Notes: a model not told the origin generated them from the sequence alone. A stretch of DNA of 64,000 nucleotides from an uncultured Verrucomicrobiae bacterium (GCA_963702845.1 OY969763.1:4800001-4864000), one strand, 5' to 3'. Shown: positions 14,616-43,735, numbered from the stretch's first letter. A program made the numbers and translations.

Positions 14616-14643
14616 AAAAAGCCCGCTGTTTCCAGCGGGCTTT
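14616..14643 (-). terminator. Intrinsic terminator, the original host terminator of the tRNA-Met gene
   Basis: Stem GCCCGCTG/CAGCGGGC with T tract on the minus strand, directly after the duplicated tRNA 3' end. Confidence 0.85.
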
Positions 14644-14697
14644 CAATTGGTTGCGGGGCTGGGATTTGAACCCAGGACCTTCAGGTTATGAGCCTGA
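14643..14697. repeat. att site of element 1 (displaced tRNA-Met 3' portion)
   Basis: 55-bp exact direct repeat of 43654..43708. Confidence 0.95.
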
Positions 14698-14859
14698 ATT
14701 TAAAACGCGGTTTTGTTGACTTTCCTAGCTATTTAGCTGTTTTTGGTGCGATGTGTTTGTGGATTTGTTTGTTTTTTGCTTGCTGGTGTTCGCCTTTTTT
14801 CTGTATGGTTGTCAGCGTTACAAACGTAACGGGAAAACCAAATACACAGGAAAAAAGCT

Positions 14860-16290
14860 ATGCCTCTGGAATTTCGAAAGCAACGTGACGGTACTTTGCG
14901 CGATGTCTGGTTCGGTGCCTTTGAAGTGAACGGCAAACGTTCCGCCGTCAATCTCGGGGTGAAGATCGCGGGCGTTCCCCCACCCTCTCTCTCGCTCAAG
15001 GATCGGGGCGATACGGACTTTGAAGTGTCGCGCGCTAATGCGCTGTCGAAGTTGAATGGCATCGTGGATGAGGCGCGGTCGCAGCGCTCTTCGGAGCGGC
15101 TGGTGGAGAAGCTGTATGAGATTAAGACAGGCGAGCAGATTAAGTCGGTAAAGCTTTCGGACCTGGGCGCTGAGTGGGAGAAGATTCCGCGCAGGCGCAA
15201 ACCGGATGACCGCTACGCTTCGCAATGCAAGTCGCGGCTGGAGAAGTTTGCGACGTTCATTCGTGCGGAGAACTCCAAGGCTGACGAGATCGCGCATGTG
15301 ACGCGGACGACGGCGCGGGCGTTCCTGGATTCGGAAACCAAGCGCGGCGTCACAGCTAAGACGTGGAATGATTCGCTAGTGCTGCTGCGGGCGACGTTCC
15401 AACAGCTTATGCCGGCGGGGAGCATCAATCCGTTTTCCGGTATTCCAACGAAGGAGATTGAAACGGTTTTTCGCAAGCCGTTCACGCCGGAAGAACTCAA
15501 GGCGATCCTAAAGGCGGCCAAGGGCGATAAGTTTATCCGGCCGATTATCATTGCTGGCGTTTGCACGGCGATGCGGCGCGGCGATTGTTGTTTGCTGAAA
15601 GGGTCGGATGTGGATTTGAAAAACCGATTCATTTCGGTGAAAACGGCGAAGACGGGTGAGACGGTGAGCATTCCGATTTTTCCGGCGCTCTACGACGTTC
15701 TGAAGAAAGCGCTAAAGACCATCAAGGATCAGGCTGGATTCGTTTTCCCAAAGCAGGCGGCGATGTATACAGAGAATCCCGACGGCATTACGTGGCGGGT
15801 GCGCAAGGTTCTCGCCCTAGCTGGATTTAAGGACACGGAGAATGAAGATGAAGGGAAGGCAGAGACTGAGGATGAAAAGCCCGGTATTGGCAAGCTGGTG
15901 AAGGTGAACGGGGCTTTGGATGTGGCCAAGACAAACGGAAACGGCGCGGTGCATCGGGGCGAGATTCATGCGGAGCGCAATGGCGGGCTGCGTCGGGCAT
16001 CAGTGCGCGACTTCCATAGCTTCCGTGTGACGTGGGTCACGCTGGCGCTCACTGCGGGTGTGCCGCTGGAGCTAGTGCAAAAGGTGACAGGGCACAAAAC
16101 GACGGACATTGTTTTGAAACATTACTTTCAGCCAGGGCGCGAGGATTTCCGGAAGGCGTTGCAATCGGCGATGCCGAAGCTGCTGACGAATGGGAAGAAG
16201 TCGCCGAAAGAGAAGTTGCGCGAGTTGATCAACAAGTCAAAGGAAGAGGAGCTTAAAAAACAAATGTTGGCGGAGTGGGAGAAGCTGTAA
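14860..16290 (+). CDS. Tyrosine recombinase / phage integrase
   Basis: TAMRRGD, DFHSFR, TGHKT..VLKHY catalytic residues; next to att. Confidence 0.93.
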   Translation: MPLEFRKQRDGTLRDVWFGAFEVNGKRSAVNLGVKIAGVPPPSLSLKDRGDTDFEVSRANALSKLNGIVDEARSQRSSERLVEKLYEIKTGEQIKSVKLSDLGAEWEKIPRRRKPDDRYASQCKSRLEKFATFIRAENSKADEIAHVTRTTARAFLDSETKRGVTAKTWNDSLVLLRATFQQLMPAGSINPFSGIPTKEIETVFRKPFTPEELKAILKAAKGDKFIRPIIIAGVCTAMRRGDCCLLKGSDVDLKNRFISVKTAKTGETVSIPIFPALYDVLKKALKTIKDQAGFVFPKQAAMYTENPDGITWRVRKVLALAGFKDTENEDEGKAETEDEKPGIGKLVKVNGALDVAKTNGNGAVHRGEIHAERNGGLRRASVRDFHSFRVTWVTLALTAGVPLELVQKVTGHKTTDIVLKHYFQPGREDFRKALQSAMPKLLTNGKKSPKEKLRELINKSKEEELKKQMLAEWEKL

Positions 16291-16414
16291 GAAGCCTTAG
16301 CCGCGTTGCCGGCGCTAAAGGCTAGTTGTGCTGCCGGCGCGGGGGAACTGGATGGCTTTGGAATTGCAAAACGGAGTTGTCAAAATAACATTCGCGTGTC
16401 CCGAAACAAATGAT

Positions 16415-16756
16415 ATGAAAAAGCTGCTGCTGTTTTTCCTTGTACTCTGCACCGCTTGTGCTTCAACCAATACCGTAGTTTTCGATTCCACCAAACGGCA
16501 GCCAAAGCAGAACGTGGACGTCCTGCCAGCAAATTCAACCCTGCCGAAATATAAGATTGTTGCGGCGTTTACAATGGACGGTCCTCTGGAAAATCAACTC
16601 AAAGCGACAAAATCCTTTTTAGATCAGACAAAGGCCTTGGGCGCGGATGCTCTCATATTGTCAGACCCTGACAATGGAGGGAGCAGAGGAACACCGGGAT
16701 TCGGAACATATCAGAATTGGGTGTTTAAAGGCACTGCGGTGGTTTACGAGAAGTAG
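16415..16756 (+). CDS. Putative lipoprotein
   Basis: MKKLLLFFLVLCTAC lipobox; LGADALI motif. Confidence 0.7.
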   Translation: MKKLLLFFLVLCTACASTNTVVFDSTKRQPKQNVDVLPANSTLPKYKIVAAFTMDGPLENQLKATKSFLDQTKALGADALILSDPDNGGSRGTPGFGTYQNWVFKGTAVVYEK

Positions 16757-16774
16757 CAATTTGGTGCCTCACGT

Positions 16775-41850: not shown

Positions 41851-42572
41851 ATGGCTGGTGGGCATTGTGGGCGCAAAAGCGCCGGCGCAAGCGCGCACAG
41901 GCTAACGCGGGGCTCGATCCCGGCTTTGTTCCCGAGGACATGCAACTCTGGCTGCGGGCGAGTTCTTTGGGGGAAGGTCCCGGCGATTCGGTTTCGAATT
42001 GGCAGGACGACAGTGGGAATGCGAACGATGCTTCGGAAAGCACGGTTTCAATGCAGCCGACGTATCAGGAGGTGACGTTTGCGGGAAAAACTTTTCCGGT
42101 GCTTCGGTTTGATACGGTGGATGACGGGATGGAGACGCCGTTGGAAATTGATGGTGCGTTTTCGATTTTTGCTCTGTGGCGTTTGGCGAGCGCTGATGTG
42201 TTCAGTGGAGCGATTGTTTCATCCGGGTCTGGTGATTGGACCATGGGCGACGTGAATGGTCAGATGCTCTGCTACTTCGAGGGTTGGAGCGCTGCGTCGC
42301 CGGTGAACACTTCTGATTTCTATTTGTTGGAAGCGCGCATAGTTCCTGGAACCAGTCCAACGGAAATTTACGTTAATGGCGTGTGGGTCGGCATGGCCGA
42401 CGGAGCGTCCTCTGCTCCGGGTCAAGTGATGCTCGGTGCGGCCGGGGATAACGGGTATCCGGGCAATTGTGATTGCGCGGAGATTTTGATTTACGACCGA
42501 TATCTATCCGGTGATGAAGCTGATGGTGTGCGTGCATATTTTCAATCGCGCTACAACTTCTTGAAGTTATGA
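41851..42572 (+). CDS. LamG/concanavalin-like domain virion-associated protein, start uncertain
   Basis: LWLRASSL..GD.VS.W.D.SGN.N.A....QPTY and AEILIYDR.LS..E...V..Y...RY in ORF 41694..42572. Confidence 0.6.
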
Positions 42573-42886
42573 ATCGTTTTTTGATCATTGTTCCTGCGGA
42601 AGATCGCGATCGTGCCAACTCGGTTGCTGCGGAGCAATTCGACACAACGGGCGGCGCTCGGACTTTCTTCATCGGCATTTCGGCCAGCGGACAAGCGCCT
42701 GCGACGCATTATTGGTGCTCGGCTCAATTTACTGATGAGAACGCAACGAAGCTCGCTTTGGCTCAGGCGGATTTTCCGCTCGCGGTGGTGCAAGGCTACG
42801 ACGCCGATAGCGACGCGGGGTTTCCGCAGCGGACCATTGCGACGTTGGGATTGAAACAAATTGTGAGTTTGCCTGAAAGGACCTGA
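42569..42886 (+). CDS. Hypothetical phage protein
   Basis: Translationally coupled on both sides; S.SG..PATHYWC. Confidence 0.65.
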   Translation: MNRFLIIVPAEDRDRANSVAAEQFDTTGGARTFFIGISASGQAPATHYWCSAQFTDENATKLALAQADFPLAVVQGYDADSDAGFPQRTIATLGLKQIVSLPERT

Positions 42887-43509
42887 TGGCGCTTGTCGTT
42901 ATCAAAGAGGATGGAACGGGTTTGCCGGATGCGAACAGTTACGGCGTGGCAGCGGATGGCGACGATTACCACGCCGCGCATCTATACGCGTCCGCGTGGA
43001 GTGGTGCTACGGCCGGCAACAAGGATATTGCGCTCGTGATGGCAACGCGGCTGATCGATGCCCACTGTGAATTTCTGGGGTTCCACAAATCGAATGCGCA
43101 AGCATTGCAATGGCCGCGCGTCCAGGTGCCCGACAGGGAAGCGAGTGGTGTCTTTTGGGCGCCGGGTCTGGTGATTGGGCTCGGGCCTGCGGCGCCATTG
43201 TATATTTCGAGCGACGTTGTTCCGCCCTGTGTCGTTGCAGCGACGTGTGAGTTGGCGCGAGAGCTTCTGATCACTGACCGGACGGGGCCGCCTTTGGGAG
43301 AGGGTTTGAAATCGACTTCGGTTAAGACGGCAACCTCAAGCAAACCGGTGGGGACGACTGGCGTCGCGACTTCTTCCTCGTCGGCGTCCGCTTCCGTGTA
43401 TGATAAGTCGGATCGGCGGCCAATTTTAACGCCCGTTGTGGAGGCTTTAATGAGGCGCGTTCTCGCTGGGAGCCCCGGCAAATCGACGGTGAAATTGATT
43501 CGGACGTAG
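42886..43509 (+). CDS. Head-tail adaptor (annotated in many phages as DnaT-like ssDNA-binding protein)
   Basis: EDGTGL.DANSY...D.YH....W...K..AL..ATRLID....F.G....Q.L.WPR. Confidence 0.75.
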   Translation: MALVVIKEDGTGLPDANSYGVAADGDDYHAAHLYASAWSGATAGNKDIALVMATRLIDAHCEFLGFHKSNAQALQWPRVQVPDREASGVFWAPGLVIGLGPAAPLYISSDVVPPCVVAATCELARELLITDRTGPPLGEGLKSTSVKTATSSKPVGTTGVATSSSSASASVYDKSDRRPILTPVVEALMRRVLAGSPGKSTVKLIRT

Positions 43510-43620
43510 ATGTGTTTGTTTGTGTTTGTGGATGTGTTTGTTTTTGAACCCCGTTTTTCCCTGTTTTCGCCTTATTTCAACACATGACCCCGAAAAGGGC
43601 AGACATCAATAAAACCCAAT

Positions 43621-43654
43621 AAAAACGGCCCTAAAACGTGTGTTCTAGGGCCGT
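43621..43654 (-). terminator. Element-supplied terminator for tRNA-Met
   Basis: Minus strand ACGGCCCTAGAAC..GTTTTAGGGCCGT followed by a T tract. Confidence 0.75.
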
Positions 43655-43658
43655 CAAT

Positions 43659-43735
43659 TGGTTGCGGGGCTGGGATTTGAACCCAGGACCTTCAGGTTAT
43701 GAGCCTGACGAGCTACCAGGCTGCTCCACCCCGCG
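43659..43735 (-). tRNA. Initiator tRNA-Met(CAT); overlaps att repeat 43654..43708
   Basis: CGCGGGG..CTCATAA..GTTCAAATC..CCCCGCAACCA; C1:A72 mismatch; encoded CCA. Confidence 0.97.

Follow-up and report, generated by a model that had tools for sequence, protein, structure and literature searches.

The DNA analyzed here is a window of 64,000 nt from an uncultured Verrucomicrobiae bacterium (GCA_963702845.1 OY969763.1:4800001-4864000), and coordinates are given as positions within it. The window includes an integrative element that encodes a phage-type head and packaging module and ends at a head-tail adaptor gene (Ad1). It is flanked by a 61-nt direct repeat of 97% identity (14637-14697 and 43648-43708), and its two att copies are 29,011 bp apart, which is the element size. 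The att core of 55 nt is identical at both ends and duplicates the 3′ part of a tRNA-Met(cat) gene located on the minus strand (43659-43735); both att repeats are intact, as had been stated in an earlier interpretation made from the DNA alone (hereafter, the sequence-only reading). Integrase, regulator and primase genes lie at one end (Table 1), as in phage-inducible chromosomal islands that form capsids (cf-PICIs). The regulators match the HTH_17 and HTH_3 families, and the AlpA family was not matched.

Table 1. Features of the 29-kb element, in window coordinates.
Feature	Position	Strand	Evidence
att core, integrase-side end, 55 bp, copy of the tRNA-Met 3′ part	14643..14697	.	repeat search
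Tyrosine integrase, catalytic R/HxxR/H/Y motifs present	14860..16290	+	PF00589, phrog_1
HigB-like toxin and HigA-like HTH/IrrE-peptidase antitoxin, cargo	17517..18932	-	Pfam, PHROGs; PADLOC PD-Lambda-2_B match
GIY-YIG nuclease, cargo	19694..20650	-	Pfam
243-aa ORF and 682-aa QueC/QatC-like protein, probable defence cargo	20798..23670	+	PADLOC QatC E 2e-55
Cro-like HTH and two excisionase-like HTH_17 genes	23863..24769	+	Pfam, PHROGs
Replication module: primase (phrog_2597) and AAA_25 helicase	24766..26930	+	Pfam, PHROGs
Terminase small subunit (true start probably ATG 28183)	28090..28812	+	phrog_6299
Terminase large subunit; has the Walker A/B, coupling and nuclease motifs	28809..30260	+	phrog_979/Terminase_6N; dN/dS 0.07-0.13
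Conserved region without recognized gene, structured core 30700-31600, probably a large RNA	30666..32344	+	folding, nhmmer, covariation
Cargo slot 1: cassette-like ORFs and 170-bp repeat (33615-33787)	32587..34312	-	ORF calls, genome repeat search
Portal, DUF4055 type	34504..36153	+	PF13264, phrog_145
Cargo slot 2: cassette-like ORFs, attC-like site 36674-36769, YcxB-like gene, 360-aa ORF	36346..38833	.	Pfam, motif search
Head scaffolding protein	39032..39835	+	phrog_206
Major capsid protein, SPP1 gp13-like family	39963..40970	+	phrog_247, PF20036; dN/dS 0.03-0.17
Probable head decoration protein, 207 aa	41016..41639	+	phrog_18828; in tailed relatives L012, L013 and L316 a homologue follows the capsid
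69-aa Pro-rich conserved ORF; cluster in 59/122 loci	41636..41845	+	clustering of loci
Surface "spike": conserved N-terminal Trp/Arg-rich anchor and exchangeable domain, LamG-like here	41790..42572	+	Pfam E 0.008 (weak), phrog_10356
105-aa partner of LamG-like gene; present in all five elements of the genome	42569..42886	+	genome comparison
Ad1 head-tail adaptor, long-tail type, last gene	42886..43509	+	phrog_477; model pLDDT 86; fold matches
att core overlapping the intact tRNA-Met(cat) gene	43654..43708	.	repeat and tRNA search

The element encodes its own terminase subunits (TerS and TerL), portal and capsid. PHROGs and Pfam recovered the families of the late gene order proposed in the sequence-only reading (TerS, TerL, portal, scaffold, capsid, decoration protein, LamG-like protein, small protein, adaptor), but that order had overlooked the 69-aa ORF and two interruptions, of 4.2 kb between TerL and portal and of 2.9 kb between portal and scaffold. 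The Ad1 stop codon lies 144 bp before the att core, about 145 bp having been expected. With respect to the labels given to the individual genes, "decoration" is probable for the 207-aa product from its position and from its homologues after the capsid gene of tailed relatives, and not from a fold (an AlphaFold2 model computed without an alignment reached a pLDDT of only 38). The Pfam match of the LamG-like gene is weak; judging from the N-termini of the family, that gene probably starts at ATG 41790 rather than at 41694. Among the element ORFs scanned (48 with PHROGs and 53 with Pfam), no prohead protease or HNH family was found in the packaging module, where a scaffold gene is present instead. 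No tail, tape-measure, baseplate, holin or endolysin family was found among them either, just as had been read from the sequence, and none of the genes expected of a complete tailed prophage (Neck1, tail terminator, tube, tape measure, tip or baseplate) was recognized. Ad1 is the only neck gene.

The genome to which the window belongs (G000; 6.03 Mb in one contig, 89.8% complete) carries five copies of the head module, with capsid identities of 70-98%. The corresponding elements occupy five att sites (tRNA-Met, two tRNA-Thr, tmRNA and tRNA-Asp) and measure 29.0, 32.5, 46.9, 48.6 (or 58.6) and 55.4 kb from att to att. No tail gene follows Ad1 in any of the five, and the head frames are open in all of them. 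The head genes are under purifying selection: pairwise dN/dS, to be read with dS saturated in the distant pairs, ranges from 0.03 to 0.17 in capsid, scaffold, TerL and the 105-aa gene, from 0.07 to 0.20 in Ad1 and from 0.08 to 0.34 in the portal. Three of the elements add a 106-aa protein with one transmembrane (TM) segment and a lipoprotein with C-terminal TM segments, a pair that is absent from the 29-kb element and from its closest sister in G000. Elsewhere in this genome there are relatives of the element terminase that have neither portal nor capsid beside them, namely isolated TerS-TerL pairs, single TerS genes and 3′ stubs of TerL (G000:C1, at 6002.6-6004.8, 2814.2-2816.2, 2924, 5404-5405, 398 and 1543 kb); a collagen/S74 fibre-like gene adjoins the TerS-TerL pair at 6.00 Mb.

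Relatives of the capsid protein were obtained from metagenomes (302), GTDB genomes (101) and IMG/VR (51). The best 80 of each of the first two sets were fetched, and the fetched relatives are mostly titled Verrucomicrobiota or Limisphaerales. Ad1 is carried by 43 of 301 genomes in an even sample of the host's order, with up to 8 copies per genome; in a phylum-wide sample any capsid match was found in 8 of 401 genomes, and close capsids in G000 only. Loci with a capsid identity of at least 50% and a complete Ad1 were then compared. Five IMG/VR contigs (L009-L013, capsid 52-64%) run on into the stopper gene Hc1 and Neck1; the count over the remaining 69 loci is conditional because these five were set apart for having tail genes. 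In none of the 69, all with at least 2 kb downstream, is Ad1 followed by Neck1, a terminator or a tube, and zeros were also obtained in the 47 loci with 5 kb. What was found after Ad1 was Hc1 (16 loci), a Mtd_N gene (13), a one-TM gene (40) and two types of lipoprotein (29 and 11), an integrase or tRNA gene being reached within 6 kb in 29 of the 69. For an unconditioned check, 40 of the 70 Ad1 matches outside G000 were fetched, chosen for contig room and with some recognized duplicates skipped; 36 loci had 2 kb downstream, and 27 of these were new. Again, Neck1, terminator and tube were found in none of the 27, and Hc1 in 9. The stopper is kept by about a quarter to a third of the family members. 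The blanks after Ad1 do not reflect a detection failure, because like profiles, in their first version, detected a Neck1 gene behind Ad1 in 53 of 63 viral loci, most of which are more distant. As the relatives are kin, several per genome, these counts are not independent trials.

Four further att-bounded members measure 29.7-51.2 kb, and all sisters span 29.7-55.4 kb. No endolysin or tail family was found among 101 scanned non-core ORFs of these four (those above 800 aa were left out), nor among the scanned ORFs of the nine att-bounded elements altogether, G000 sisters included. Terminal repeats indicative of circular forms were absent from the 16 contigs checked. Integrases are varied across the family and tRNA targets are many; one locus (L178, G417:C111) holds two oppositely oriented members, arranged tail to tail with the integrase genes between them. 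The absence of a tail is characteristic of the family and is maintained by selection. Local loss of tail genes in this element, which would have shown as close homologues continuing into a tail, is ruled out by the tail-less close homologues: the five G000 copies and the two sets of loci, in which Neck1, terminator and tube were not detected after Ad1.

With FastTree, 162 of 199 capsids, including all the tail-less ones, fall in one clade (support 63) that has tailed phages as successive sisters. With IQ-TREE and 50 rows, a single branch (71/96; recovered in 70% of bootstrap trees) separates off the 33 tail-less rows, which sit inside a 99/98 node together with six tailed phages. These trees were built without cf-PICI sequences, and no tailed member was found inside the tail-less clade. 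A single origin by tail loss from tailed siphoviruses is the best reading, with moderate support. Tailed siphoviruses with a DUF4055 portal, phrog_206 scaffold, phrog_247 capsid and phrog_477 Ad1 have the same head and adaptor families and gene order as the element, and include uncultured sisters (L009-L013, L315, L316, L319; capsid identity 50-64%) and isolates such as Enterococcus phiFL3A (51%). They run on from Ad1 to Hc1, Neck1, terminator, tube, chaperone and tape measure, whereas the element ends at Ad1. The whole tail and lysis block of a long-tailed siphovirus would have been lost.

An Ad1 model built from a 67-row alignment is closest to adaptors of long tails, namely those of Mu (Z 7.6), YqbG (7.3), HK97 gp6 (7.2) and DT57C (6.6; rmsd 8.6, 119 aligned), short-tail adaptors reaching a Z of 4.9 or lower. 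Scores below 8 are middling, though neck proteins fill the match list. Foldseek and PDB sequence searches with Ad1 gave nothing significant. There is no nozzle-sized gene after the capsid gene among the element ORFs; ejection proteins are too divergent for exclusion by profile. A podovirus-type short tail encoded by the post-capsid ORFs, which the sequence-only reading had named as an outcome that would speak against it, is unsupported in view of these middling long-tail matches and of the missing nozzle-sized gene.

In SPP1, the stopper is described as binding to the rim of a 24-stranded barrel made by the adaptor's hairpins (PMC9701221). Here a hydrophobic 14-mer serves as the hairpin at the stopper-binding position in 3 of 5 tailed, 13 of 17 stopper-bearing and 0 of 72 stopper-less family members, the motif having been derived from the same rows in which it was first counted. 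In the new loci it is present in all 10 readable stopper-bearing adaptors and absent from all 17 readable stopper-less ones, four being unreadable. Stopper-less members have a polar hairpin of 13-32 residues, and the hydrophobic fraction is 0.48 in tailed, 0.53 in stopper-bearing and 0.20 in stopper-less adaptors. In the 29-kb element the hairpin comprises 32 residues (141-172), is Ser/Thr-rich and is modelled as long strands (141-155 and 159-172). A 53-sequence Hc1 profile that matches tailed controls found no Hc1 in the whole of G000. When the hairpin is left out of an Ad1 tree, the tailed rows branch at the base, most of the rows with a stopper make up a grade and those that lack it are derived, with 3-4 changes. 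These data suggest that the neck was shortened stepwise, the tail being lost first and the stopper later, with a matching change in the adaptor. The stopper-less members, this element included, appear to have lost the stopper and swapped the stopper-binding hairpin for a polar, Ser/Thr-rich one. As for necks of this kind, T5 and DT57C are reported to lack a stopper, the adaptor docking the tail terminator directly; their adaptor has been proposed to hold the DNA via threonines and flexible hairpins that may occlude the pore (PMC10713586, PMC11313276).

The neck of stopper-keeping members shows additions as well. Of 31 stopper rows that gave no tail hit, 22 have both DWG repeats at the C-terminus of the stopper and a following Mtd_N fibre gene (two of the others have DWG only, one Mtd_N only and six neither, two of these being outgroup viral loci), as against 0 of 55 tailed rows for either feature. 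DWG-ended stoppers followed by the fibre gene are seen in L083, L085, L162, L166, L186, L475, L494 and others. From this co-occurrence we infer that the repeats may bind Mtd_N; a literature search on such a link found nothing.

The alternative considered in the sequence-only reading was a prophage that had lost its tail genes. Stated as an ordinary prophage with a recent loss of tail and lysis genes and now decaying, it could account for the broken relatives (frameshifts in G450 and G442; Ad1 missing in L112, L168 and L182) and for the descent of the family from tailed phages. No tailed member was found in the clade, however, all five local head modules are open and under purifying selection, and besides its losses the neck has acquired DWG repeats, a fibre and a new hairpin. 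These results largely refute recent decay, which we regard as very improbable.

Our preferred explanation, to which we assign a probability of about one half, is that of a helper-dependent, capsid-forming integrative element of Limisphaerales-like Verrucomicrobiota, a satellite in function, that borrows tails. Judging from the gene set, it would excise, replicate via its own primase and helicase, build scaffolded heads and fill them using its own terminase. With no stopper, the adaptor ring itself might close the head through the polar Thr/Ser-rich hairpin, as proposed for the T5/DT57C neck. Filled heads would leave when something else lyses the cell, the holin-like protein and lipoprotein perhaps aiding release in some members, and would gain infectivity by docking a foreign tail, with or without the stopper of that phage; the element would pay its way with defence cargo. 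No candidate ejection, nozzle or muralytic gene was recognized, so DNA entry likely needs outside help. In favor of tail borrowing are the five tail-less copies at five att sites, the purifying selection on their head genes, the lack of Neck1, terminator and tube after Ad1 in the 69 and 27 relatives, the single clade among tailed phages, the long-tail fold kept by Ad1 and the presence of tailed temperate phages in the same hosts. Precedents are the cf-PICIs, whose filled heads are reported to leave the cell without tails and to acquire them afterwards, the choice being set by adaptor and connector (bioRxiv 10.1101/2025.02.11.637232), and the stopper-less T5/DT57C adaptor, to which the terminator docks directly. 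Helper dependence, particles, an excised circle and transfer are predicted from the genes.

Two other host genomes contain tailed prophages (L266/L267 in G404:C16; L268/L269 in G431) that have a phrog_290 tube and, by visual annotation, head genes of lambda type. They co-reside with tail-less elements, and the one in G404 carries a primase/AAA pair homologous to that of the element. We consider the G404 and G431 prophages candidate tail donors.

Several observations weigh against tail borrowing. No helper was found in G000 with seven tail and neck families and 12 prophage proteins; the parts looked for across the genome and not found were tape measure, tube, sheath, baseplate J, Neck1, stopper and terminator. 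Specifically, a whole-genome search with PF10145, phrog_290, phrog_169, phrog_161, PF04865 and PF04984 returned none, with little weight for phrog_169 and phrog_161, which matched no control; and our own Hc1, Ne1, Tc1 and tube profiles together with the 12 prophage proteins found no helper in this 89.8% complete genome. A full-length phrog_290 tube is present in only 3 of 50 host genomes, a figure that refers to fragmentary metagenome-assembled genomes and to one tail family; 13 other phrog_290 matches cover only the C-terminal part of the profile, and phrog_169 (0 of 50) is uninformative, its control being silent. Necks of lambda type are present in the two readable host prophages. None of the 72 stopper-less adaptors retains the ancestral hairpin motif, and the original docking surface is therefore not conserved. 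Stopper-keeping members have added DWG repeats and a fibre gene that a tail-borrower should not need, and the elements, measuring 29-55 kb, match helpers in size, which described satellites do not. Finally, the element has no stopper, which in cf-PICIs serves together with the adaptor in the choice of tails, and this makes simple tail piracy of the cf-PICI type less certain.

Tail-less hitchhiking or autonomy, taken jointly, are somewhat less probable than tail borrowing. In the former, heads would cling via their own surface proteins (the variable spike and, in some members, an Mtd_N fibre attached to the stopper) to a helper virion or to the cell and enter with a co-infecting phage, for which MiniFlayer is a described precedent (PMC10690885). 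The DWG/Mtd_N co-occurrence, absent from tailed rows, fits this proposal, as do the hairpin remodelled after stopper loss and the gene before Ad1, which has a fixed Trp/Arg-rich N-terminus acting as an anchor and a distal domain exchangeable between members. The capsid-Ad1 slot holds decoration genes in tailed relatives as well, however, so that the spike may be an ordinary head decoration; the binding of DWG to Mtd_N is deduced from co-occurrence, and the crossing of the envelope by the DNA is left unexplained. We consider hitchhiking unlikely on balance.

Autonomy is a little less probable still. Here the element would be a tail-less temperate virus of the portal/HK97-fold type, with the adaptor barrel as its whole "tail", its own spikes or fibres for attachment and release through a holin-like and spanin-like pair with no endolysin; no entry route is proposed. 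The phage-sized genomes with full replication modules agree with it, as does the abundance of the family in the order (above), matching tails being rarely seen. The lengthened hairpin recalls phi29 and P68, for which long adaptor barrels and no stopper (no gp16) are described (PMC9701221). The one-TM protein and the lipoproteins each occur after Ad1 in 40 of the 69 loci, and a lipoprotein with an upstream small TM gene is found among structural genes of two 72-kb uncultured phages (L250:9621-10540, L253:9617-10552), flanked on one side by a needle-like or an HNH gene and on the other by genes for collagen fibres; no endolysin was recognized nearby. Yet no ejection, nozzle or cell-wall-degrading gene was recognized, a barrel of 15-residue strands would be about 5 nm long by our estimate, far too short for a diderm envelope, and the membrane pair is missing from the element and its closest G000 sister. 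The holin-like and spanin-like labels are suggested by topology: searches with 18 members of the one-TM protein gave only chance-level membrane matches for holin families, and the lipoprotein, like the 207-aa protein, matched only unnamed, mostly viral clusters in the ESM Atlas.

Along the same line, we tentatively consider, at low probability, a lineage abandoning tails altogether, in which the adaptor closes the head (forming a short tube in some branches), fibres on head and neck make contact with host or helper, a holin-like and spanin-like pair effects release with no endolysin, and a large structured RNA is a core part. If true, these phage-sized, portal-bearing HK97-fold elements would add a temperate branch that has no tail to the lineage of tailed phages.

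The RNA in question would be encoded between TerL and portal, in a spacer of 2.1-7.2 kb (58 locus rows including duplicates). Its structured core folds with a z of -9.1 (20 shuffles), the second half of the spacer (31950-32560) folding no better than shuffles (z -0.05). Iterated nhmmer found a homologue of the structured region in 44 of 45 spacers. In a 29-sequence alignment of 58% identity, 38 of 54 consensus pairs show at least two double-sided changes, with a column-shuffle control that is weak, and the alignment favors the plus strand. Rfam gave no match. The region is probably a large RNA. An antisense DUF6573 gene, forming one protein cluster, lies in 37 of the 45 spacers (L205, L272, L281 and L304, for example); the element seems to be without it.

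Regarding the cargo, the QueC-like gene was found again in three other family members. The QatC-like protein (21622-23670) has about 200 additional C-terminal residues with no family match, and its gene lies immediately before the one for the Cro-like protein, an arrangement shared with G425, so that a role as sensor-regulator instead of plain cargo is conceivable. The 170-bp repeat of slot 1 is present in more than 20 copies in the genome, both inside and outside the cassette slots of the elements, and part of it resembles the end of a phosphoketolase gene. An 18-bp motif (repeat D1; 24999, 28123, 31140 and 39145) has 12 of its 17 genome matches inside four of the five elements, all five amounting to 212 kb of 6.03 Mb; within elements it is always on the late-gene strand, several copies being in frame inside scaffold, portal or primase genes, and it is possibly an operator or an insertion scar. 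At 3.6 kb from the element, a second att-bounded island of 7.2 kb at a tRNA-Arg gene (47332-54628) encodes its own tyrosine integrase (47464-48783).

The heavy defence cargo, together with the lone TerS-TerL pairs of G000, which hint at other uses of packaging genes, could also fit a spread with no capsid infection, for instance by transformation or vesicles, the head genes being kept for phage interference or another host benefit. The TerS-to-Ad1 chain is nevertheless co-conserved with att sites, varied integrases and many tRNA targets, as expected of a self-packaging mobile element, and we hold this explanation improbable.

The family adds another independent origin of capsid-forming tail-less elements, phage-sized and in a widespread environmental order, with large loads of defence genes and integron-like cassettes. 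Such elements would be classed as defective by prophage finders, and they would probably escape satellite models that are tuned to the genes and sizes of cf-PICIs. The stepwise neck loss makes testable which minimal parts hold DNA in a head and how heads choose or forgo tails. Tail-less capsid islands in Verrucomicrobiota were not found described in our literature searches, most subscription journals and the cf-PICI preprint supplements being out of reach. A gene transfer agent is a fixed chromosomal cluster with tail genes and random packaging, and with neither integrase nor replication genes; here integrase, att and primase are present, insertion sites are many and there is no tail.

Among described systems, cf-PICIs (EcCIEDL933, KpCIDSM30104) are the most similar in layout. 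As described, they are tRNA-integrated and carry an integrase, small HTH regulators, primase/helicase, their own TerS, TerL, portal, capsid and neck ring, and defence cargo, with no tail and no endolysin (PMC10085698); the element likewise has neither tail module nor lysis genes. They measure 10-18 kb (median 14) as against 29-55 kb in the element family (PMC10085698; bioRxiv 10.1101/2025.02.11.637232). The element differs further in its scaffold-type head, DUF4055 portal and gp13-like capsid, with no protease or packaging-module HNH, and in having one neck gene, the relatives that keep Hc1 having a second one as cf-PICIs do. The family also stands apart in having, within its late operon, cassette slots and a large region of structured RNA, and many relatives, unlike cf-PICIs, carry the holin-like and lipoprotein genes. 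Because size, protease, HNH and second neck gene do not agree, the element is not a cf-PICI; by its genes it works like one, with a head from a scaffold-type siphovirus lineage. Sizes, trees and gene families agree with the sequence-only view of a larger, independently derived element with a scaffold/DUF4055-portal head and large cargo slots. Compared by description, the Streptomyces satellites MiniFlayer and MulchRoom also have their own capsid, portal and terminase and arose independently; of the two, MiniFlayer lacks a long tail and encodes a fibre of its own, and MulchRoom has an integrase and borrows tails, but they are linear, of 15-17 kb, with terminal repeats, no primase and Actinomycetota hosts (PMC10690885). 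The T5/DT57C connector is likewise an adaptor without stopper, in which the DNA is proposed to be held by threonines and flexible hairpins; unlike the element, T5 has tail genes of its own, and the likeness of the necks is an analogy (PMC10713586, PMC11313276). Much smaller, portal-less HK97 genomes are described in PMC13669383. EPIPs, helper-dependent and integrative as the element would be, are reported to encode scaffold, capsid, adaptor and stopper, and differ in their 11-kb size, tape measure and serine integrase (PMC12822802). VEIMEs, also helper-dependent and integrative and in part from Verrucomicrobia, are described as being at most 17 kb and having no major capsid protein (PMC9618062), in which they differ from the 29-kb element with its complete head and packaging module.

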